DNA of 64,000 nt from Alphaproteobacteria bacterium (GCA_045611785.1 JAZKXV010000028.1:4061-68060), one strand, 5' to 3'. Positions 52,513-62,579 are shown, counted from the stretch's first letter. The notes: generated from the sequence alone by a model not told the origin. Translations and numbers: made by a program.

Positions 52513-55500
52513 ATGCGTAAAAACTCAATATTTCGTACTATTTTTGCATTTATTGCTGCTTTGTGTTTCAGTTATAACACATATGCAGCTTCATCTGCAG
52601 TTGTAAATTCTTTGTACAATTATGCACGTACTAAGCAGATAACTAAAGCCAGATACGTGATTAATAATATGGGTTACAAAGTTGACACTAAGGATGAAGA
52701 CGGTAATACCGCTTGGTGTATTGCTAAAGCTAAGAATGATATGCGTGCCATGGAAGTTCTACAACAACTTGGTGCAAATATAGATCAAAGCTGCGGTATG
52801 CCTTGGGGTACAATAGGAACTGTTTCTGCAGTTGCTGTTGCCGGCGGTGCTGCTGCAGCTCTTGGCGGCGGAGGCGGCGGAGGCGGCGGAAGCGGTTCTT
52901 GCTCCGACGTAGAATGTGGAGAAAATGCACACTGTGATAAGGGTGCATGTGTATGCGATAGTGGGTTTTTAGATACAGAAGGCGATGGTAAATGTTATGC
53001 TGACTTAAAATGCGGTGAGCAAAAACACTCCATCGGTAAACAATATAAAAATTCTTGTGTTTGTGAGTTAGGCTATGACGGAACATTGTGTGAAAAATGT
53101 GCTCCGGGTTATGATGTATATAATACTGATGAATGTCACTTAACAAAGATATGCCAAAACAACGGTAGACAAGAAGGCGATGAATGTTTGTGTATCAATG
53201 GTTGGACAGGTGATTTGTGCCAAACATGTGACGGTTTCATAGGCGATGATGGTGTATGCTATCCTTTACAAAATTGCCAACATGGTGGTAAACAATATAG
53301 AGATGAATGTAACTGCGAATCCGCAAACGGTTGGACCGGCGAGTTCTGTGATGTTTGTGAAAACTTTGAAGGAACAGATGGTGTTTGCTACGAAGTTTTA
53401 GAGTGTAAATATGGTGGTAAACAAGTTAACGGCGAATGTGATTGTTCAACAGCAAACGGTTGGACCGGCGAATTTTGTGATGTTTGTGACGGTTTTGTAG
53501 CTGACAACGGCGTATGCTATCCTTTACAAAATTGCCAACATGGCGGTAAACAATATAGAGATGAATGTAACTGCGAATCCGCAAACGGTTGGACCGGCGA
53601 GTTCTGTGATGTTTGTGAAAAGTTTGAAGGTGAAGACGGTGGCTGCTATGAAGTGTTAGAATGTAAAAACGGCGGTACACAAGTTAACAATGCTTGTGAA
53701 TGTGCAAACGGTTGGACCGGCGAATTCTGTGATGTTTGTGAAAACTTTGAAGGCTCTGACGGCGGTTGTTATGAAGTTTTATCATGTCAACACGGTGGTT
53801 ATCAAGTTAACGGAACATGCGAATGTTCAACAGCTAGCGGTTGGACCGGTGAACTTTGTGAAGTTTGCGACGGTTTTATAGGTGACAACGGTGTTTGCTA
53901 TGAAGATTTAGGTTGTACTACAAAAGGCGGTAAACAATATAGAGATACCTGCGATTGTTCAACTGCACAAGGTTGGGGAGGTGAACGTTGTGACGAATGT
54001 TCAACAATCGGCAAATTTGAAGGCTCTGACGGTGTTTGTTATGAAACATTAGCATGTGAAAACGGCAGTGTGCAAGATAATGCAATTTGTAACTGTGTCG
54101 ATGGATGGGAAGGTACATTGTGTAACGAATGTAGCACTGTCGGTAAGTTTGAAGGAACAGATGGCGTTTGTTATGAAAAATTAGAGTGCGTTCGTGGCGG
54201 TGTACAAGTTAACGGCGAATGTGATTGCTCAGCAGCAAACGGTTGGACCGGTACACTTTGTGATGTTTGTGACGGCTTCTTTGCAGACAACGGTTACTGT
54301 TATGAAGCTTTAGACTGTGATGATCATGGTGGTTTCCAATATAGAGATACTTGTGACTGCTCAACAGCAAAAGGTTGGGGTGGCGATCTTTGTAACGAAT
54401 GTTCAAGCATAGATAAAGTTGAAGGAACAGATGGCTTTTGTTATGAAAAATTAGATTGTGCTAATGATGGAACACAAGTTAACGGCTACTGTGTTTGCGC
54501 TGGCAACTGGGGTGGCGATCTCTGTAATGAATGTACAGGTTTTGAAGGTGCTGACGGTGGTTGTTACGATGTGTTAGAATGTGAAAACGGCAGTACACAA
54601 GTAAACGACTCTTGCGGATGTATCAATGGTTGGAGCGGCACAACTTGTGGCGAGTGCGTAGGTTCTGCAAAAGATGGCGTTTGTTATGCTCCTATGGGTT
54701 GCGCAAACGGTGGTGTTCAAGAAGGTGATGTATGTAACTGCGAATCTGCAAATGGTTGGGGCGGAGCACTTTGTGATGAATGTTCAACCATAGGCAAAGC
54801 AGAAGGAACGGACGGCATTTGTTATGATAAAATTGAGTGCGGTCACGGCGGTTTACAAGTTAACAACACATGTAATTGCGAATCTGCAAATGGTTGGGGC
54901 GGCAATCTTTGTAATGAATGTGAAAGTATCGGACGTTATGAAGGCGACGATGGTATTTGTTATGGCCCTAAAGGTTGTGTAAACGGTTCACAAACAGGAA
55001 ACGAATGTATTTGTACAAACGGTTGGGAAGGCACATTGTGTGATGAGTGCGAATCGGTTGGCAGATTTGAAGGTGCAGACGGTTCTTGTTATGTTGCAAT
55101 AAACTGCGGAGAACACGGAACTCAATTTAACAACACATGTGTTTGTGACGAAGGTTATACACGTAATTCTACAGGTGTGTGTGTAGCAGAGTCTGTAGCT
55201 GATAAAGTTGCTGCAAGTAACGAAAGAAATGCAAACTTTGTATTTGCTCCTGAAGAGGATGAAACAAATACATCAGGAACAAAAAACTGGACTAACTATA
55301 GCAATGACAACTACTATGGTAAAAAGTATGATGACGATGTTAACAGTCCGGTAGGTGACATTGTTGGTGATCAATATAACTTGTATATGGCATATGTTTT
55401 AAACCAAAATACTGGAGTTTCTGAGTTAGTTCAAGATGTAACAGTTAACTTAAACAACTATGGTGACGGTAATGTTTATGGTATTGCATCTGATGCAAAC

Positions 55501-58500
55501 GTTAACAACATTTTGTTATCATATCTTGAATTAAGAGAAAATTTGGTTGATGGAGCAGATAAAAGACAAAATGTTAGCCTCATTGTTAATAACGGTGGAG
55601 AAATGAGAGCTGAAGATGGCTCAATATTGTATCCCGGTGAAAATATAATATCAGGCGGTAATGGTGCAACAGTAGGTGTTGTTGGTACATCATCAAATTT
55701 ATATAATATGGTAGAATATGTGTTTGCAGGTGTTACAAACAATGTAGAGCGTTCATCATTAATTAAGGTTACAAGTGCGGGCTCAGGCGACACTATCGGT
55801 ATGGCTACTGCAGATGGTAATATTAATAATGGTTTGTTCAGTGTGACAGGTTATGATATGCTTACTTATACAGGCCACAATGTTGTAACAGATAAGGCAG
55901 TGGTAGAAGTAGAAAATACGGCCGATGGTCTGGCTGCAGGTCTTTATAGTTTATTTTCAGGAACTGTTACAAACTCCGGTATTGTTACTGTGAAATCTAA
56001 TAAAGGTGTGGCTGCGGGTCTAGTTAGCCAACTCACAATTACTAACAGCGGTAAAGTAGATGTAAGCAGTGCATTTGGTGATGTATTTGGTATTTATTCT
56101 AATTCTAGTGTTACAAACTCCGGTACAGTTGATGCTCAAACTGGTGGTAGCAATGTTACCGCTATTAATGCTACAAATATAACAAACTCTGGAGGTGTTT
56201 CTGCAACAACTACAGCAGATGGTGCAGAAGCCTATGGTTTAAAAGGAAACGGTAATGTTGGAAATGAAGATGAGATTATTGTTTCAGCTAAAGGAAATGC
56301 ATACGGTATACACAATAAAGGAACCACAAGAAACATCGGCGTTATAGATGTGGCATCAAGTACAGCCAAAGCTGTTGGTATATTGACTGAAGGAGATGTT
56401 CGTAACGATGGCGAGATATATGTTGAAGGTTTCAATGCTATTGGTATGGAGGTAACCAATTATACTGATTTAGAGAATACTGGAACAATAGATGTTTCTT
56501 CATTGATGAATGGTGAAGCGTATGGTGTTTGCACGCTTACAAACTCACATGGTACATTTACCAACTCTGGAGAGATTTCGGTTGTTTCCGATCTCAATGC
56601 ATATGGTGTTTATGCTGTAGATACAGACATTAATAACACAAATAATATAAATGTAGTATCATATAATGGGGATGCTGTAGGTATTAATCATGCCGAAGGT
56701 TCTTGGGGCGATGAAATTTATGATCATAGTAACGTAGGATCTATTAGTGTAACAGCATCTATGGGTGATGCATACGGGGCTTCCTTAGATATTTCAAATT
56801 TTTACAATAATAACATTATAGAAGCAATTTCTGATCATGGTATAGCATATGGTATTTCTGCAGATAGATCATATATTGAAAACAGTGGAAGCATACAAGC
56901 ATCATCAGCATATGATGGTCAGGCAACAGGTATTGAAGTTTCTAGCAGTACTGTAGATAACTATTCTCAGATTACTGTAAGCACTATAGAAGGAAATGCA
57001 TATGGTATTTTTGCTATGGGTGGAAACATCAGAAGCAATGGAGATATTGTTGTTTCATCTGAAGATGGTGATGTACAAGGTATTTCTGGCGATGCTAAAG
57101 TTGAAAACTATGGAAGCATACAAGCATCATCAGAAAGCGGCAATGTGATTGCTATAAACTCTGTTGATAATGAAGTCTTAAATGAAGACGTGGGATATAT
57201 TTATGCAATCTCTGACATTGGTAAAGTATGGGGTATTTTAGGTGATGCGTCAACCATTACAAACAATGGAGAAATTGAAGTTGATAGCAACAATACTGAT
57301 CTTTCAGGTTATGCTGCATATGGTATTTCAAATGTTGGAGGAATTATTACCAATAACGGAAGTATTGTTGTAGACGGATATACTAAACTTATAGGTATTA
57401 GTAGTAGCGGAAATGTTACCAACAATGGTTCTGTGGCAGTTTCTTCTGTAGGTGAATCATACGGTTTAGTATTAAATTCTACTTATCAAGCATTAAACGC
57501 CGGAACTATAACTTCAATTTCTACCGGAAACATTGCTACAGGTGTATGGGCGACAGAAACTGAAAGCTTTCAGAATACAACTGCCGGATCAATCATAGTA
57601 GAAACTAGTAACGATGCATATGGTATAAGAGGTGTAAATGCCTATAATATCAGAAATGATGGAAGTTTGAATATAACATCATTTGGAGATGCATATGGTA
57701 TATATGCTAGTGGAAGCGATGCTATATATAACAGTGGTTCAATTATAACTACAAGTTTTGAGAACGATTCAAATGGTGTGTTACAAGAAGGTGGATTGTT
57801 CCATAATGAAGACCTTGGTGTAATTAGAGCAGAAACAACAGCAGGTGAGGCATATGCTGTAGCTTCTTATGGCGGAACCGTTGTAAACGATGGCGAAATC
57901 CGTGCAGTATCAGCTGAAAACACTGCAATAGGTATTTATGCTGATTCTTCTCAAGTGGTAAACAATGATACAATCACTGTAGATTCAACAAATGGTATAG
58001 CATGTGGTATTTATGCTGAAGAAAGTGAAATAATAAACAACGGAACTATTGTTGTAAAATCAATCAATGGTGATGCATATGGTATTTTTGCTAATGGCGG
58101 AACTGTTACAAACTCCGGTACCATTACAGTTCAAGATGTAAGTTGTATAGGAGATACATGTGACGGTGGTGCATCACATATTGTACTTAACAATGGTGCT
58201 GTATATATCAACTCAGGTGTAACCTCATATGAAATGAGCTTAAATTTGGATGCATTCGGCGGAACAACATTGTTGGGTAAAAATGGTGTGTTTGAAGCAG
58301 AATCAATCAGTGGTACTTTGGGTGTAGATTCAAGTGTGGTTGCAGAAGGCTTTGAAGATACATATGTTGAACAAGCTGCTCTTAAGAGTGAAGAAATCGA
58401 TGTTGATGTGTTCTCAAATTCTGCAATGTTTGAAGCAAGTGTTGAACAAGATCAAACAGACACAGCAAATGTTGTTATGACACGTAAGTCTTTTGAAGAA

Positions 58501-59541
58501 TTGTCTTCAACTTCAGCAATTGCACAGTTCTTAGAAGAAAACTATAAGAACAAAAACAACTCTTTGTTGTTCAGCGAGCTCAAAAAAGCTGATACAGCAA
58601 GCTATGACACAACCGAAGCTCAAGCTTTAGGATATGCTTTGTTGCCAAACTTTGCACATGAAAACATGAATGTGTTCAGAAACTTAAATGCAACATTGAC
58701 CGATGAGTTGTTTACAGCAACAGGTGTTGAACGCAAGATGGTAGGATATGACTATTTGTATCAATCTCGTGATGATATAGGTACATTAAGCGGTTATGAA
58801 AACTATGCTAACACAATGTACTTTATGTATGACGTGGAAGGCGATGACCTTATCAGAAGAGGTTTTGGTATGAGCATAACCCAATTCAGAAGCGACTATG
58901 AAGACGATTCAAACCGCAAAGATTTGGTTGTACAAGCTTTAATTCCGGTTTCTTATGTTGATGAAAACGGCTTTAACTTTGCAACAGTTCTTCGTGCCGG
59001 TTATTCAGACGGCGAATATGAACGTCAATCTTTGAACAAGAAGTTTGAAGCAGATCTTACATCTTGGGTATATGGTTTGAGCAATGCCGTTAAATATAAC
59101 ATTAACTTAGGCTTTATGGTTGTTGAACCAACTGCAGAGTTAAATGTATTGGGCTTCTATCAAGATGAAATTGACGAAGGCGACAATGCTAGTGCATTAA
59201 AAGTTGATGCTCAAAATCATTTATCTGTTGAGGCAGGTGTTGGCTTGAACTTAAGAAAAGATGTTGAATTAAGCCATAAGAGCCGTTTGAGCTTTAAGGC
59301 AGGCGCAATGTACTATCATGAATTTGCTAAGCCTTATTATGACTTAGACGCTTCAATGAACGGAATGAGCGGCTCATATAATATTACAGATTATGAAAGA
59401 GTTTATGATCGTGATAGAGCTGTGTTGAGCGGACAAATTGACTTTAGTTATAAACCGTTCACATTCTATGGTAAGTTCAAACAGTTTATTGAAGACGATA
59501 ATCCGTTTGAAGTAAACGCAGGTATTAAATTTAACTTCTAA
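52513..59541 (+). CDS. giant (2342 aa) type Va autotransporter: signal peptide, poly-Gly linker, about 25-30 tandem EGF-like cysteine-rich repeats, ~1200-aa beta-helix repeat passenger, C-terminal ~280-aa translocator beta-barrel
   Basis: Signal peptide MRKNSIFRTIFAFIAALCFSYNTYA. GGGGGGGGSGS. Repeats of C-x-C-x2-G-W-x-G-x2-C-x2-C matching the EGF-like signature C-x-C-x(2)-[GP]-[FYW]-x(4,8)-C. Periodic NSG...(D/N)AYGI rungs. Amphipathic beta-strands ending ...GIKFNF. Confidence 0.8.
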   Translation: MRKNSIFRTIFAFIAALCFSYNTYAASSAVVNSLYNYARTKQITKARYVINNMGYKVDTKDEDGNTAWCIAKAKNDMRAMEVLQQLGANIDQSCGMPWGTIGTVSAVAVAGGAAAALGGGGGGGGGSGSCSDVECGENAHCDKGACVCDSGFLDTEGDGKCYADLKCGEQKHSIGKQYKNSCVCELGYDGTLCEKCAPGYDVYNTDECHLTKICQNNGRQEGDECLCINGWTGDLCQTCDGFIGDDGVCYPLQNCQHGGKQYRDECNCESANGWTGEFCDVCENFEGTDGVCYEVLECKYGGKQVNGECDCSTANGWTGEFCDVCDGFVADNGVCYPLQNCQHGGKQYRDECNCESANGWTGEFCDVCEKFEGEDGGCYEVLECKNGGTQVNNACECANGWTGEFCDVCENFEGSDGGCYEVLSCQHGGYQVNGTCECSTASGWTGELCEVCDGFIGDNGVCYEDLGCTTKGGKQYRDTCDCSTAQGWGGERCDECSTIGKFEGSDGVCYETLACENGSVQDNAICNCVDGWEGTLCNECSTVGKFEGTDGVCYEKLECVRGGVQVNGECDCSAANGWTGTLCDVCDGFFADNGYCYEALDCDDHGGFQYRDTCDCSTAKGWGGDLCNECSSIDKVEGTDGFCYEKLDCANDGTQVNGYCVCAGNWGGDLCNECTGFEGADGGCYDVLECENGSTQVNDSCGCINGWSGTTCGECVGSAKDGVCYAPMGCANGGVQEGDVCNCESANGWGGALCDECSTIGKAEGTDGICYDKIECGHGGLQVNNTCNCESANGWGGNLCNECESIGRYEGDDGICYGPKGCVNGSQTGNECICTNGWEGTLCDECESVGRFEGADGSCYVAINCGEHGTQFNNTCVCDEGYTRNSTGVCVAESVADKVAASNERNANFVFAPEEDETNTSGTKNWTNYSNDNYYGKKYDDDVNSPVGDIVGDQYNLYMAYVLNQNTGVSELVQDVTVNLNNYGDGNVYGIASDANVNNILLSYLELRENLVDGADKRQNVSLIVNNGGEMRAEDGSILYPGENIISGGNGATVGVVGTSSNLYNMVEYVFAGVTNNVERSSLIKVTSAGSGDTIGMATADGNINNGLFSVTGYDMLTYTGHNVVTDKAVVEVENTADGLAAGLYSLFSGTVTNSGIVTVKSNKGVAAGLVSQLTITNSGKVDVSSAFGDVFGIYSNSSVTNSGTVDAQTGGSNVTAINATNITNSGGVSATTTADGAEAYGLKGNGNVGNEDEIIVSAKGNAYGIHNKGTTRNIGVIDVASSTAKAVGILTEGDVRNDGEIYVEGFNAIGMEVTNYTDLENTGTIDVSSLMNGEAYGVCTLTNSHGTFTNSGEISVVSDLNAYGVYAVDTDINNTNNINVVSYNGDAVGINHAEGSWGDEIYDHSNVGSISVTASMGDAYGASLDISNFYNNNIIEAISDHGIAYGISADRSYIENSGSIQASSAYDGQATGIEVSSSTVDNYSQITVSTIEGNAYGIFAMGGNIRSNGDIVVSSEDGDVQGISGDAKVENYGSIQASSESGNVIAINSVDNEVLNEDVGYIYAISDIGKVWGILGDASTITNNGEIEVDSNNTDLSGYAAYGISNVGGIITNNGSIVVDGYTKLIGISSSGNVTNNGSVAVSSVGESYGLVLNSTYQALNAGTITSISTGNIATGVWATETESFQNTTAGSIIVETSNDAYGIRGVNAYNIRNDGSLNITSFGDAYGIYASGSDAIYNSGSIITTSFENDSNGVLQEGGLFHNEDLGVIRAETTAGEAYAVASYGGTVVNDGEIRAVSAENTAIGIYADSSQVVNNDTITVDSTNGIACGIYAEESEIINNGTIVVKSINGDAYGIFANGGTVTNSGTITVQDVSCIGDTCDGGASHIVLNNGAVYINSGVTSYEMSLNLDAFGGTTLLGKNGVFEAESISGTLGVDSSVVAEGFEDTYVEQAALKSEEIDVDVFSNSAMFEASVEQDQTDTANVVMTRKSFEELSSTSAIAQFLEENYKNKNNSLLFSELKKADTASYDTTEAQALGYALLPNFAHENMNVFRNLNATLTDELFTATGVERKMVGYDYLYQSRDDIGTLSGYENYANTMYFMYDVEGDDLIRRGFGMSITQFRSDYEDDSNRKDLVVQALIPVSYVDENGFNFATVLRAGYSDGEYERQSLNKKFEADLTSWVYGLSNAVKYNINLGFMVVEPTAELNVLGFYQDEIDEGDNASALKVDAQNHLSVEAGVGLNLRKDVELSHKSRLSFKAGAMYYHEFAKPYYDLDASMNGMSGSYNITDYERVYDRDRAVLSGQIDFSYKPFTFYGKFKQFIEDDNPFEVNAGIKFNF
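53263..53765 (+). repeat. near-identical ~250-bp direct DNA repeats inside the EGF-like region of the autotransporter gene
   Basis: The segment CTATCCTTTACAAAATTGCCAACATGG[T/C]GGTAAACAATATAGAGATGAATGTAACTGCGAATCCGCAAACGGTTGGACCGGCGAGTTCTGTGATGTTTGTGAAAA occurs at about 53263 and again at about 53518. Confidence 0.8.
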
Positions 59542-59590: not shown

Positions 59591-59927
59591 TGTGCCTGAT
59601 AATGACAGTTAAAAGCTGTGCATATATACGACAACAAAAAATCGAAATAAAAACATTGACATTTGATTTAATTTGTACTAACACTTTTATTAAGTGGTCG
59701 AGTTGGCCACTTGGAACTTAACAATTCCTTGGTAACGCGTCTTAGTATAGGGACGTTAAAATTTATACGCCGACTGGTTATTTCATAAATGGCTGGAAGG
59801 CGGTAAAATAAACCTTGCGGTCAATATACCGCGCTATCTCGTTATCATAGTTGTTAACTTCCAGTCGCTTCTTTTATAGGGCGATTTTTTTTATTTAAGT
59901 AACTTACATAAAAAAAGGAAGATAATT

Positions 59928-60644
59928 ATGAAATATGTAAATGAAAATGGTAGAAGTATGGTTGAAATGCTCGGCGTTTTAGCTATTATCGGTGTGCTTT
60001 CAGTTGGCGGTATTGCCGGTTATTCTAAAGCAATGAACAAATTTAAAGTCAACAAAACAACTGACCAAGTTTCAATGTTAGTGGCTAATATCAGAACAAT
60101 TTATTCTACACAAGGAAACTACAAAGGTTTAAATGAAGCTGCTGCTATTAGCTTTGGCGTTGTTCCAAATGATATGATTGATGGTACTAGCCTTAAAAAT
60201 GCATTTGGCGGTGCTGTATATATTAAAGCTGCTGCAGCTCGTTCTACAGCTACTGCTGCACCTGAAGCATTTATCATTGAATATCAAGGGTTATCACAAG
60301 AAGCTTGTGTAACCATCGCAACAGGTGACTGGGGTTCTGGTCAATCTTCAGGCTTATTAGGTATTGCTGCTGCTGGTTCTGCAGGTGCTGGTGGTGTTTT
60401 AGCTTCTACTTATACAGATAGTGTTACTGTAGGTCAAATAGGTACATTTACTGAAGTTGGTGGAACTGCTAGTGGAGGAACAACTCCAAGTCCTAGTGCA
60501 GGTGCAGCAGCAGGTTTAGCTTTAGCTGCTCCAGGTGCTACTGAATCTGGCAGCCTTTATCCAACACCAATGCCTGTTACTGCAGCTGTTACTGCTTGTA
60601 ACGGTACAGGTACTGTTAACTCAGTTGCTTGGAAATACTACTAA
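59928..60644 (+). CDS. type IV pilin-like protein (prepilin-type N-terminal cleavage/methylation domain) with a Gly/Ala/Thr/Pro-rich C-terminal half
   Basis: MKYVNENG|RSMVEMLGVLAIIGVLSVGGIAGY: class III leader with Glu at +5 and a hydrophobic helix. AGGAAG Shine-Dalgarno. Confidence 0.65.
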   Translation: MKYVNENGRSMVEMLGVLAIIGVLSVGGIAGYSKAMNKFKVNKTTDQVSMLVANIRTIYSTQGNYKGLNEAAAISFGVVPNDMIDGTSLKNAFGGAVYIKAAAARSTATAAPEAFIIEYQGLSQEACVTIATGDWGSGQSSGLLGIAAAGSAGAGGVLASTYTDSVTVGQIGTFTEVGGTASGGTTPSPSAGAAAGLALAAPGATESGSLYPTPMPVTAAVTACNGTGTVNSVAWKYY

Positions 60645-60670
60645 AAACCTTACATATTCCTAAGGTTATA

Positions 60671-60697
60671 CTTACAAAACTTACAAAACTTACAAAA
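60671..60697 (+). repeat. 9-bp tandem repeat CTTACAAAA x3
   Basis: Read directly from the sequence, immediately after the pilin stop. Confidence 0.8.
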
Positions 60698-60699
60698 AA

Positions 60700-60729
60700 A
60701 AGAAGAGGTGAAAGCCTCTTCTTTTTTTA
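60700..60729 (+). terminator. intrinsic terminator after the pilin gene
   Basis: AGAAGAGG-TGAAAGC-CTCTTCT followed by TTTTTTT. Confidence 0.7.
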
Positions 60730-60983
60730 TATCCTCTCTCTTTACTGTCACCCCTCGGTGGTTTTAACCGCCGTCAAGGGGTCTTTGTTAGATGCCTTGA
60801 CAACCTCCATTGCCTGTCGAGGCATGACAGAATATGAACTCCCTCACTCTGTCATACTCGTGCCTGAATGAAGTGCCATCTTTCCTTTGTCATACTCGTG
60901 CCCGAACAAAGTGAGGAATAGACACGAGTATCCAAGGAATAATAAGGCAATAAATATTGGGGGTTATATATTAAATTAATGGC

Positions 60984-61400
60984 AAAAAACACTTGCTTTT
61001 AAGGGGGTGCAGCTTTAATATTGAAATATCGTCAAATGGCGATGGTGCTTCAAAAACATCAAAACTTAGCAAGGCTCCTTGTAAAGGGGAGTTTCTGATA
61101 TAAGGCTTTTTTGTAAAAGCTCGAATAAAGAAAGCTGATGCTAAGCAGTTTTTGAGCTCCCCGCTTTGTTTTTTCAAAGCGGATTTGTTTTATGTCAAAA
61201 ACAAAAAATACTTGCTTTTAAGATGGTGCAACTTTAATATGGAGATATCGTCAAATGGCGGTGATGTCCGAAAGACATATACAATAAGTCCCTTTTGGGG
61301 AGTGGAGGATATAAGGTGTTTTTTACACTCGAATAACTCCGTCTGCATTGTACAGTCTTTCGGCTCCCCACCTTGTTAACTAAGGTGGTTTTTTGTTTTA
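60984..61400 (+). ncRNA. two tandem paralogous ~210-bp structured units (about 60984-61202 and 61203-61400), each ending in its own intrinsic terminator: candidate duplicated sRNA genes
   Basis: Unit starts AAAAAACACTTGCTTTTAAGGGGGTGCAGCTTTAATATTGAAATATCGTCAAATGGCGATGGTG vs AAAAAATACTTGCTTTTAAGATGGTGCAACTTTAATATGGAGATATCGTCAAATGGCGGTGATG. Both have a long-range GGGGAG...CTCCCC pairing and terminal hairpin+T-run (CCGCTTTG-TTTTTT-CAAAGCGG; CCACCTTG-TTAACTAA-GGTGG-TTTTTT). Confidence 0.4.
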
Positions 61401-61420
61401 TAAGCGTGTGAGGATACAAA

Positions 61421-61675
61421 ATGAGTGGTAAATTAAAAATTAGAAATATACGCAAAAAGGCAATGTCAGATTTAAATGTTGAGCTTGATAAATTGCTTAA
61501 TGAGCAAAATTTATCTTTAGATCAATTATGTGAAATTACGGATATTAATAAAAAAGTAATTGAACGATGGAAATCGCAAACAGGTTATGTTGATTTGTAT
61601 TTTTTATGCAGAATTTGTGCATGTTTTAATAAAAAGCTTGTTATTAAGTTTAAAGATTTTACAAACGAAAAATAA
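61421..61675 (+). CDS. small XRE-family helix-turn-helix protein
   Basis: LSLDQLCEITDINKKVIERWKS HTH pattern. GAGGAT Shine-Dalgarno. Confidence 0.5.
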   Translation: MSGKLKIRNIRKKAMSDLNVELDKLLNEQNLSLDQLCEITDINKKVIERWKSQTGYVDLYFLCRICACFNKKLVIKFKDFTNEK

Positions 61676-61721: not shown

Positions 61722-62579
61722 ATGAACTATATTAATGGAAGTAAAAACATGAATCTGTATCAAAAAGCAAAAAAACTCTTAAATAATGAATATGAACACA
61801 ATTTTGAAATTGTAAAAGATAGTCATTATCATAAAAGTTTTGTAAATGAAAAAATCAGACATTCTTTGCAAGTTGCCGGCGCAGGTAACGGAATTTTGCG
61901 TAATGAACCTTATTTTCAAAATAAGTCAGCAGAATTTATTGAAATTGCAAAAACAGCTATTTTGCTTCATGATGTTTTCAGATTTAATGAAATCAGAATT
62001 AAATATCAAGAAAACAGAAAAGTTGATCATGGTGTTGAAGGTGCTAAGCTTTTGGCTGAGTTGCCCGATTTTAATATGCAACAAATTGTTTTGCCTGTAA
62101 AACATCATGGTCATATGATTGAAGAATTTTATAAAGATACAGAATTTACATCTATTGCTGATGAAGAGCTCAAAGATCAGATTGAGCATATTATATTTGC
62201 GGTTCGTGATGCCGATAAAATTGCCAATTGGCAAATTTTAACTAAAGAATATGAAAATATGCGCCTTGTTTGGTTGCCTTTCCCTGATGATAGAACAAAA
62301 AATCAGGGCATTATCAGTGATAATGTTTGGGAATCTTTTATACAAGGAGAGGTCGTTCCGAGAGATTATCTTAAAACCAATGCCGATTGTCTGATTTCGG
62401 TTTTGGCATGGGCTTTTGATATTAATTATAAATATTCTTTCGAATATAGTGTGCGCTTAAATATGCTTGAAGGCTTTGAAAAAATTATGCACGATTTGCA
62501 AATTGAACAAACCAAAATAACATATGTGATGGATACTGTTAAAGCATATGTCGAAAAACGTTTCGGTATGAAGATTTAA
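61722..62579 (+). CDS. HD-domain metal-dependent phosphohydrolase
   Basis: H...HD...H...H...D motifs (HSLQVAG, LLHDVF, VKHHGHM, VRDADKI). The start could instead be Met 61749, which has a GGAAG Shine-Dalgarno. Confidence 0.6.
   Translation: MNYINGSKNMNLYQKAKKLLNNEYEHNFEIVKDSHYHKSFVNEKIRHSLQVAGAGNGILRNEPYFQNKSAEFIEIAKTAILLHDVFRFNEIRIKYQENRKVDHGVEGAKLLAELPDFNMQQIVLPVKHHGHMIEEFYKDTEFTSIADEELKDQIEHIIFAVRDADKIANWQILTKEYENMRLVWLPFPDDRTKNQGIISDNVWESFIQGEVVPRDYLKTNADCLISVLAWAFDINYKYSFEYSVRLNMLEGFEKIMHDLQIEQTKITYVMDTVKAYVEKRFGMKI

Follow-up and report, generated by a model that had tools for sequence, protein, structure and literature searches.

What is encoded by the two similar units that lie one after the other in front of a small regulator gene in an alphaproteobacterial genome: small RNAs (sRNAs), a leader of the gene behind them, or proteins? 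The units (~60985-61192 and ~61204-61398, both on the plus strand) are placed between a type IVb pilin gene (59928-60644) and a small open reading frame (ORF; 61421-61675) in a stretch of 64,000 nucleotides (nt) from Alphaproteobacteria bacterium (GCA_045611785.1 JAZKXV010000028.1:4061-68060), hereafter called the window, whose coordinates are used unless another locus is named. A preliminary description had taken them for tandemly duplicated sRNA genes, giving a duplicated cis-regulatory RNA in brackets as an alternative. We find that the two units are old paralogues within a structured RNA family that has no Rfam entry. Both are almost certainly functional as structured RNA, and the bracketed alternative now looks the likelier one: we put at roughly one half the probability that each unit acts mainly in cis, as a transcription attenuator of the regulator gene.

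The resemblance on which the preliminary description rested holds. The first 65 nt of the units are identical at 55 positions (85%), and this start is made up largely of a promoter-like site (TTGCTT, 17 nt, TAATAT) together with the first hairpin; over the whole units, identity is ~72%. A 31-nt box (ACTTGCTTTTAAGnnGGTGCAnCTTTAATAT) is present in two exact copies in the 64 kb, at 60991 and 61210, with 0.00 expected from shuffles, and the shorter box that had been pointed out, GATATAAGG, stands at 61097-61105 in unit 1 and 61308-61316 in unit 2. Both units also end, as had been described, in terminator-like hairpins with T-tracts (61161-61182 and 61368-61388); a terminator scan of the region gave four terminator-like hairpins vs 0.8 expected. 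The promoter of unit 1 was missed by a generic promoter scan because its -35 element matches the consensus at only three of six positions. The parts of the units are as follows.

60993-61021, plus strand: promoter-like site of unit 1, read from the sequence (-35 TTGCTT 60993-60998, 17-nt spacer, -10 TAATAT 61016-61021)
61020-61191, plus strand: structured RNA of unit 1 (match to covariance model R1, 138.7 bits, E=1e-35)
61028-61043, plus strand: P1 hairpin of unit 1, followed by GGUG (61044-61047) and then by the 5' strands of P2 and P3
61086-61091, plus strand: GGGGAG of unit 1, which with CUCCUU forms the P4 hairpin; P5 follows
61097-61105 and 61120-61128, plus strand: internal loop of unit 1, GAUAUAA (in the shorter box) and CGAAUAA; the P6 hairpin and the CUG/CAG junction belong to the same RNA
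61157-61162, plus strand: CUCCCC (CTCCCC in the DNA) of unit 1
61161-61192, plus strand: intrinsic terminator of unit 1, CCGCTTTG-TTTTTT-CAAAGCGG, then ATTTGTTTTA (terminator scan)
61212-61240, plus strand: promoter-like site of unit 2 (-35 TTGCTT 61212-61217, 17-nt spacer, -10 TAATAT 61235-61240)
61239-61397, plus strand: structured RNA of unit 2 (R1, 118.5 bits, E=3e-30)
61247-61262, plus strand: P1 of unit 2
61297-61302, plus strand: GGGGAG of unit 2
61308-61316 and 61328-61336, plus strand: GAUAUAAGG and CUCGAAUAA of unit 2
61364-61369, plus strand: CUCCCC (CTCCCC in the DNA) of unit 2
61368-61388, plus strand: terminator of unit 2, CCACCTTG-TTAAC-TAAGGTGG, then T-tract (terminator scan)

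Folded separately, units 1 and 2 adopt the same multi-helix architecture, with minimum free energies of -51.8 kcal/mol (z=-3.86 vs shuffled controls) and -51.9 kcal/mol (z=-3.61), respectively. The preliminary description had proposed examining whether the positions that differ between the copies are compensatory, and they are: P2, P3, P5, and P6 differ by paired changes, CAAAAAC/GUUUUUG of unit 1 corresponding to CCGAAAGAC/GUCUUUCGG in unit 2, CUUAGCA/UGCUAAG to UACAAU/AUUGUA, UUCU/AGAA to GGAG/CUCC, and GCUUUU/AAAAGC to GUGU/ACAC. Because the sequences of the P2 and P3 helices differ between them, each unit should fold on its own. The many G-U pairs, along with the T-tracts, fix the strand as plus.

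By scanning a species-representative genome collection with an exact pattern derived from the conserved boxes, we identified 23 loci, all in metagenome-assembled genomes (MAGs) of uncultured Alphaproteobacteria whose record names indicate gut or faecal samples, with up to nine loci in one MAG. A covariance model (R1; 166 positions, 47 pairs) built on the fold called Fold A below gave 29 strong matches (118-183 bits), including second tandem copies that the exact pattern had missed. The covariance search of relatives that had been suggested thus led, after a metagenome scan and protein-guided look-ups, to a family of ~40 homologues, nearly all from uncultured gut Alphaproteobacteria; the same locus, its RNA identical, is also found in several gut metagenome assemblies of ENA. 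A TTGnnn-16/18-TAnnnT motif precedes the RNA in 34 of 41 members, its end coinciding with the beginning of the model match. The internal loop and the CUCC/GGGGAG boxes are nearly invariant across the family, and the most conserved bases are those of the internal loop and the paired boxes.

In the alignment of the 29 strong homologues, standard pairs fill 95.6% of the pair cells, vs 42-56% when partners are slid, compensatory double changes affect 28 of the 47 pairs, and the covariation score is 0.49, vs 0.19 after shuffling (none of 500 shuffles reached the observed value) and 0.07-0.13 with partners slid by 1-3 columns; these counts include paralogues and related MAGs, a relatedness that the slid-partner controls keep. 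The covarying helices are P1, P2, P3, P5, and the terminator; compensatory changes are thus also found in the terminator helix of unit 1 (helix 7), which is conserved across the family.

These data leave little room for a coding sequence or a non-functional repeat such as a miniature inverted-repeat transposable element. ORFs of 36-75 amino acids (aa) can indeed be drawn on both strands over the units, among them the overlapping ones of 52-75 aa that the preliminary description had already set aside in favour of RNA, but a Pfam search of them gave no match, the indels in P6 and in the junctions are not multiples of three, and substitutions are paired and compensatory. A mere repeat is at odds with the conservation of the promoter and terminator motifs, with the fixed orientation and distance to the gene, and with the lack of terminal inverted repeats. 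We regard the probability of either origin as practically negligible. A mobile-element account of the multi-copy spread was likewise rejected: the unit repeated among paralogues, which in one genome extends from the promoter to the end of the regulator gene and takes in the 5' ends of neighbouring secreted-protein genes, has no terminal repeats.

Searches for an earlier description of the family were negative within their scope. Rfam 15, run over the whole window at gathering thresholds, reported tRNAs elsewhere only and nothing on the units, and at E<=10 over 60600-61500 (901 nt) it gave only chance matches, mostly on the pilin terminator. A scan of IMG/VR with the family pattern gave 0 matches, and a full-text literature search with the conserved strings returned only unrelated papers. 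No XRE or HTH motif is mentioned by Narunsky (2024). Among 3161 gut structured-RNA candidates, 100 lie near HTH-XRE genes (Fremin and Bhatt 2021); the family motif strings are absent from the first 200 of the 408 supplementary files of that study, in which the family may already have been predicted.

Tandem units, each with its own promoter motif and terminator, are found in the window and in three other MAGs (L003, L005, L011), and at all four loci the promoter motif of the second unit comes right behind the terminator of the first. Unit 1 of the window is 80% identical to unit 1 of L003, and unit 2 is 76% identical to unit 2 of L003 and 73% identical to the single unit of L044, whereas units 1 and 2 of the window are 66% identical in the same comparison. 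Since identity across species exceeds identity within the window, the duplication predates these species, and by this comparison the window pair is orthologous to the L003 pair, both copies having been kept with structure-preserving changes. The closer relative L044, whose regulator is 72% identical to that of the window, has the unit 2 type only.

In the window the RNAs are followed by these genes:

61410-61675, plus strand: Shine-Dalgarno sequence GAGGA (61410-61414) and gene for an 84-aa helix-turn-helix (HTH) protein of the Cro/C1 type (Xre; 61421-61675)
61722-62579, plus strand: gene for a 285-aa HD-domain protein (PF01966 HD, E=1.6e-7), 47 nt after the HTH gene

The 84-aa ORF matches PF13443 (HTH_26, E=1.2e-5) and the transcriptional regulator groups phrog_8 and phrog_1373. 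Its ATG lies 23 nt past the end of unit 2, which leaves no space for a separate promoter. This arrangement is general, as at nearly all loci the element is followed by a Shine-Dalgarno sequence and then, 17-33 nt after its end, by the start codon for a small Cro/C1-type HTH protein (74-111 aa). A covarying structured domain is therefore found on the same strand, 5' of the gene, with an intrinsic terminator directly after it and no promoter before the ORF. The HTH proteins of the family loci share only 13-35% identity with each other. A profile search of 5.8 billion proteins identified 36 relatives, and the RNA was directly upstream in every one whose contig was fetched. The RNA is far better conserved than the HTH protein behind it, which points to a conserved partner rather than to the HTH protein itself.

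Relatives L024-L029 and L042-L043 have the HTH and HD genes in the same order, and the HD gene probably belongs to the same operon as the HTH gene, behind the same two terminators, in the window lineage only. The HD protein has weak HDIG and Cas3-HD similarity (PADLOC PDLC01254, E=8e-7; TIGR01596, E=0.006); no relative with a solved structure was found for it, and a defence-system search of the window operon with PADLOC gave no match past the convincing threshold. The AT-rich family loci are mostly chromosomal and located among housekeeping genes; genes for type IV pilins or for small secreted DUF4402-like proteins are frequent neighbours. At L048 (1950-2300; same metagenome sample as L024, ERZ28653801), an L011-type RNA and HTH gene lie between bipA and pfkB, the RNA being preceded by three copies of a ~110-bp repeat (AAAAGGTCATCATGTCATAAAATGCT...); this contig is perhaps from the organism of the window.

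A few members depart from this pattern. Four GC-rich environmental variants (L031, L037, L038, L040) keep P2, P3, P4, P5, the loop, and P6 and have additional hairpins; a U-tract terminator is missing, the ORFs behind them are non-HTH, and their expression platform is a different one. One of them, L040, adjoins hicAB, a gene with a P22 antirepressor domain, and primases; a homologue search with the ORF behind it found a single near-identical protein, and a BLAST search of the GC-rich variant against plasmids gave no match. At L036 (458-623, minus strand) the RNA directly precedes a gene for a signal-peptide-bearing, outer-membrane-beta-barrel-like protein and no HTH gene. The orphan L022 (2636-2801) is an RNA with a terminator and no gene downstream. 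Weak R1 matches upstream of pilin genes turned out to be a different conserved leader and are not family members.

These settings can be read in another way, with the units as free-standing genes for trans-acting sRNAs that would base-pair with other mRNAs or bind a protein and are merely linked to the HTH gene, which leaky read-through would reach. Each unit does have its own promoter and terminator, as sequence motifs, and the first units of the tandem pairs, like the orphan L022, have no gene behind them. However, the same-strand position 17-33 nt before a start codon, without room for a promoter, is almost absolute, and the GC-rich variants, having no terminator, cannot be independent sRNA genes. 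The most conserved bases moreover lie in the internal loop and the paired boxes and not in an accessible seed. The presence of the same core with varied downstream platforms and genes, in the GC-rich variants and at L036, we count in favour of a leader. On balance, we consider trans-acting sRNA genes a rather unlikely explanation, even with the points discussed below for a related RNA.

Two folds have to be distinguished. In Fold A, the one that covariation supports, P2 is formed between the 5' extension and the core linker and P3 between this extension and the core hairpin loop, the local upstream CUCCUU captures GGGGAG, the 5' GGUG pairs with the CUCC of CUCCCC, and the terminator is complete. 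The long-range GGGGAG/CTCCCC pairing of the preliminary description is possible in every member, but the covariation-backed fold pairs GGGGAG locally with CUCCUU, so that the long-range pairing is best seen as an alternative conformer, equivalent to the closing helix of sRNA-Xcc1 (RF02221). In this Fold B, CUCCCC is paired over its full six bases to GGGGAG, and a hairpin is closed by CUG/CAG. Every member (100%) is capable of the pairing, and its bases hardly vary, a single G-U being seen among 28 core sequences; when the GC-rich variants are included, the hairpin gains two compensatory pairs, and P5 shows compensatory changes as well. The energy penalty of forcing Fold B, relative to Fold A, is 1-11 kcal/mol in most members (median ~4).

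The likeness to sRNA-Xcc1, an sRNA from a Xanthomonas campestris integron cassette (Jiang 2010, PMC2996969; Chen 2011), is one of architecture. The window units score below the RF02221 gathering threshold (53 bits), with nothing at E<=10 in the 901-nt search, and the GC-rich variant L038 reaches 32.8 bits, under the same threshold, when a true sRNA-Xcc1 in a Kingella plasmid (L050), used as positive control, scores 56.4 bits. A core model (R2) built from the present family only ranks true sRNA-Xcc1 sites first in their loci, weakly (17 and 13.6 bits, E 0.03-0.2); R1 gave no match at the sRNA-Xcc1 sites of such loci and only terminator-like matches elsewhere in them, and a BLAST search of E. 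coli genomes with the sRNA-Xcc1 consensus gave none. The alignment of L038 with RF02221 shows a common order of elements, and Fold B of the family has the architecture of the sRNA-Xcc1 consensus. Both RNAs have a G-rich/C-rich closing helix (GGGGAG/CUCCCC in the family), a hairpin-capped arm with the internal loop AAUACAAUA (AUAYAA) / GAAUAA (GAUAUAA / CGAAUAA in the family), a second hairpin, a U-rich linker, and a U-rich tail. They also share their habits, being multi-copy, sometimes tandem, and located directly upstream of a same-strand gene for a small protein with a DNA-binding fold, which is symE, KilA-N, Bro-N, or ORF6N for sRNA-Xcc1 and an Xre HTH for the present family. Specific to the family are a separate canonical terminator hairpin and a ~60-nt 5' extension (P1, P2, P3, GGUG, CUCCUU), which re-pairs the core with strong covariation and has no counterpart in the 87-nt RF02221. 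The settings largely differ as well: most family loci are chromosomal, in AT-rich gut Alphaproteobacteria, and sRNA-Xcc1 resides on integron cassettes, phages, and plasmids. On these grounds we treat the family as a divergent, 5'-extended relative of the sRNA-Xcc1 architectural kind and not as a member of RF02221.

Part of what has been reported on sRNA-Xcc1 is favourable to trans-acting sRNAs. It accumulates in Xanthomonas as a discrete 88-nt RNA (~88-100 nt on Northern blots, with mapped ends) and was called trans-acting by its discoverers (PMC2996969); it has also been described as multi-copy, Xylella having seven copies, of which five are tandem (PMC12189769). On the other hand, symE stands directly behind it in the most widespread Xanthomonas integron cassette (bioRxiv 10.1101/2025.06.18.660453), and the ORF6N-domain gene of APSE phages has sRNA-Xcc1 upstream. 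We also observed canonical copies at L050 2484-2566, L051 6175-6250 (minus strand), and L061 ~2385-2470, on a Kingella plasmid and on contigs of IMG/VR, where antirepressor genes (KilA-N and Bro-N) follow at a distance of 20-60 nt. Their 5' and 3' flanks form a covarying outer helix (CAGUUUAUGG/CCAUAAACUG vs AUAUUCGAUC/GAUCGAAUAU), and in three sequence contexts the loop of the hairpin, CUUUGUA, has its complement, UACAAAG, at the Shine-Dalgarno sequence downstream. Such features suggest that sRNA-Xcc1 may be a cis-regulatory leader larger than its 87-nt Rfam model. A core that always stands before a gene for a small DNA-binding protein, combined here with a terminator and a competing 5' extension, points to regulators, antirepressors, and toxins being controlled in cis rather than to classical trans action.

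Regulatory RNAs located upstream of the gene that they control, on the same strand, are known from the c4 RNA of phages P1 and P7 and from ToxIN; in phage P1, c4 precedes icd-ant, and in ToxIN a terminator between the RNA and the toxin gene sets the RNA:protein ratio. By analogy, the units might be immunity or antitoxin-like RNAs (of the P1 c4 or type III toxin-antitoxin style), an excess of which would keep a potentially harmful DNA-binding protein, or a nuclease operon, downstream from being translated or from acting. The gene order of promoter, RNA, terminator, and gene is the same, relatives of the family RNA precede antirepressor-type genes as c4 precedes ant, and sRNA-Xcc1 precedes symE, KilA-N, Bro-N, and ORF6N genes on mobile elements, with a loop complementary to the downstream Shine-Dalgarno sequence. 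In several subtypes of the present family the CUCCCC region complements the downstream Shine-Dalgarno sequence beyond GGAG (UUAGCUCC/GGAGCUAA; AACUCCC/GGGAGUU), the HD protein of the window operon weakly resembles a Cas3-HD nuclease, and tandem copies would raise the RNA dose. However, the downstream proteins are ordinary small Xre HTH proteins without any sign of toxicity and are not endoribonucleases, and the hairpin loop of the family pairs inside the RNA, with its own 5' extension (P3, strong covariation), and not with the Shine-Dalgarno sequence or ribosome-binding site downstream. Unit 2 of the window lacks this complementarity, and the loci that have it are related paralogues. Housekeeping genes, not mobile elements, surround most loci, and no convincing defence-system match was obtained. 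Unlike c4 and ToxIN, the units have no Rfam C4 match and are ~170 nt long with their own promoters instead of 36-nt processed repeats. We hence find an antitoxin-like role improbable, and membership in the type III toxin-antitoxin systems was rejected, given the ~170-nt units with their own promoters, the Cro/C1-type HTH, and the PADLOC result.

From the observed structure and position, and from the promoter and terminator motifs, we infer a switch, its trigger, and termination itself along the following lines. Each unit would be an independent transcription unit, in which a sigma-70-type promoter drives the synthesis of a ~165-170-nt RNA ending at an intrinsic terminator, and the RNA core would be a three-way junction of the sRNA-Xcc1 type (GGGGAG, P5, the invariant 7x7 loop GAUAUAA/CGAAUAA, P6, CUG..CAG, CUCCCC). 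With the terminator intact in Fold A, most transcripts would stop and leave a small stable RNA, and the downstream Xre-type HTH gene (here HTH-HD), having no room for its own promoter, would be expressed by read-through only. Intrinsic termination depends on the integrity of the stem most of all at its foot, beside the U-tract. In Fold B, GGGGAG would take the two foot G-C pairs of the terminator, on the U-tract side, and permit read-through into the HTH gene (and the HD gene). The balance between the two folds would be set by a ligand or factor recognised by the invariant internal loop. The near-invariance of GGUG, CUCC, GGGGAG, and CUCCCC is expected under this scheme because these bases must serve two pairings. 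With two units in series, transcripts from the first promoter would pass two gates and those from the second promoter only one.

Several points weigh against such an attenuator. Because the antiterminator bases are almost invariant, covariation cannot test the GGGGAG/CUCCCC pairing, and the proposed antiterminator has only 6 bp, with a 2-bp overlap with the terminator. A longer one was sought by eye, by comparing the P1, P2, and P3 strands with either terminator strand, and nothing conserved was found. The co-transcriptional order of folding would favour Fold A. Since a few related MAGs with many paralogues supply most members, the covariation counts do not represent independent events. Free-standing sRNAs would account equally well for the first unit of each tandem pair and for the orphan L022, and the discrete RNA seen on Northern blots, together with the trans action attributed to it, adds to this side in the case of sRNA-Xcc1 (PMC2996969).

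The attenuator reading has well-documented parallels. Tandem riboswitches of the same class with separate terminators are common, especially those for c-di-GMP (Sherlock et al. 2022, PMC9481103), and the adenine/T-box pair is a precedent for a promoter between the units (PMC9481103). As in tandem ("pseudo-cooperative") riboswitches (TPP, c-di-GMP-I/II), two complete structured units with their terminators stand in series before one gene, in a family that is multi-copy per genome and located beside pilin and surface-protein genes. Unlike them, the family has no similarity to any Rfam riboswitch and no convincing long antiterminator, and it would regulate a transcription factor. More tentatively, and with a probability well below that of attenuation, the core that the family has in common with sRNA-Xcc1 could serve as aptamer in a riboswitch class not yet discovered, or could be bound by a conserved factor of the cell, and would gate small DNA-binding regulators, antirepressors, and toxins; sRNA-Xcc1, long annotated as a virulence sRNA acting in trans, would then really be a widespread cis leader.

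Other features were observed beside the pair.

52513-59541, plus strand: 2342-aa autotransporter (PF03797 Autotransporter, BigA_3rd) with long N-terminal Cys-rich EGF-like repeats
59655-59893, plus strand: second, unrelated conserved structured leader of ~220 nt, immediately before the type IVb pilin gene
60670-60697: three perfect tandem copies of ACTTACAAA(A), just past the pilin stop codon
60695-60728: bidirectional terminator with a 14-bp stem, behind the ACTTACAAA(A) repeats
60740-60940: GC-richer spacer of ~200 bp, between the pilin terminator and unit 1

The autotransporter gene is upstream of the pilin gene, and a surface-protein gene cluster is thus found beside the RNA-HTH module. 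The pilin leader comprises a promoter-like TTGACATTTGATTTAATTTGTAcTA, several hairpins, and a terminator; it has no Rfam match and only chance-level R1 scores, and it was also found at L044 45-292 and L005 5655-5900, with few compensatory changes over the three species. The spacer contains the direct repeat CTyTGTCATACTCGTGCC (60847-60875, 60885-60913) and several inverted repeats; since L044, a relative, lacks it, a small repeat element seems to have been inserted in this lineage only.

With ~40 examples and extensive covariation, the family is a well-supported addition to structured RNAs, coming from poorly known gut bacteria, and its tie to sRNA-Xcc1, whose function has been unclear since 2010, changes the reading of both. 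If the shared core is indeed an aptamer or a factor-binding site, gut Alphaproteobacteria would control in this way local regulators that lie beside pilin and surface-protein genes, through as many as nine or more paralogous copies per genome. The multi-copy, tandem, surface-gene pattern recalls that of second-messenger (c-di-GMP-type) riboswitches, and the old, conserved tandem pair of the window lends itself naturally to a test of two-gate control. Should a ligand or factor exist, the family would represent a new sensor class, placed over surface and pilus regulators and, on mobile elements, over lysis-lysogeny or toxin genes.

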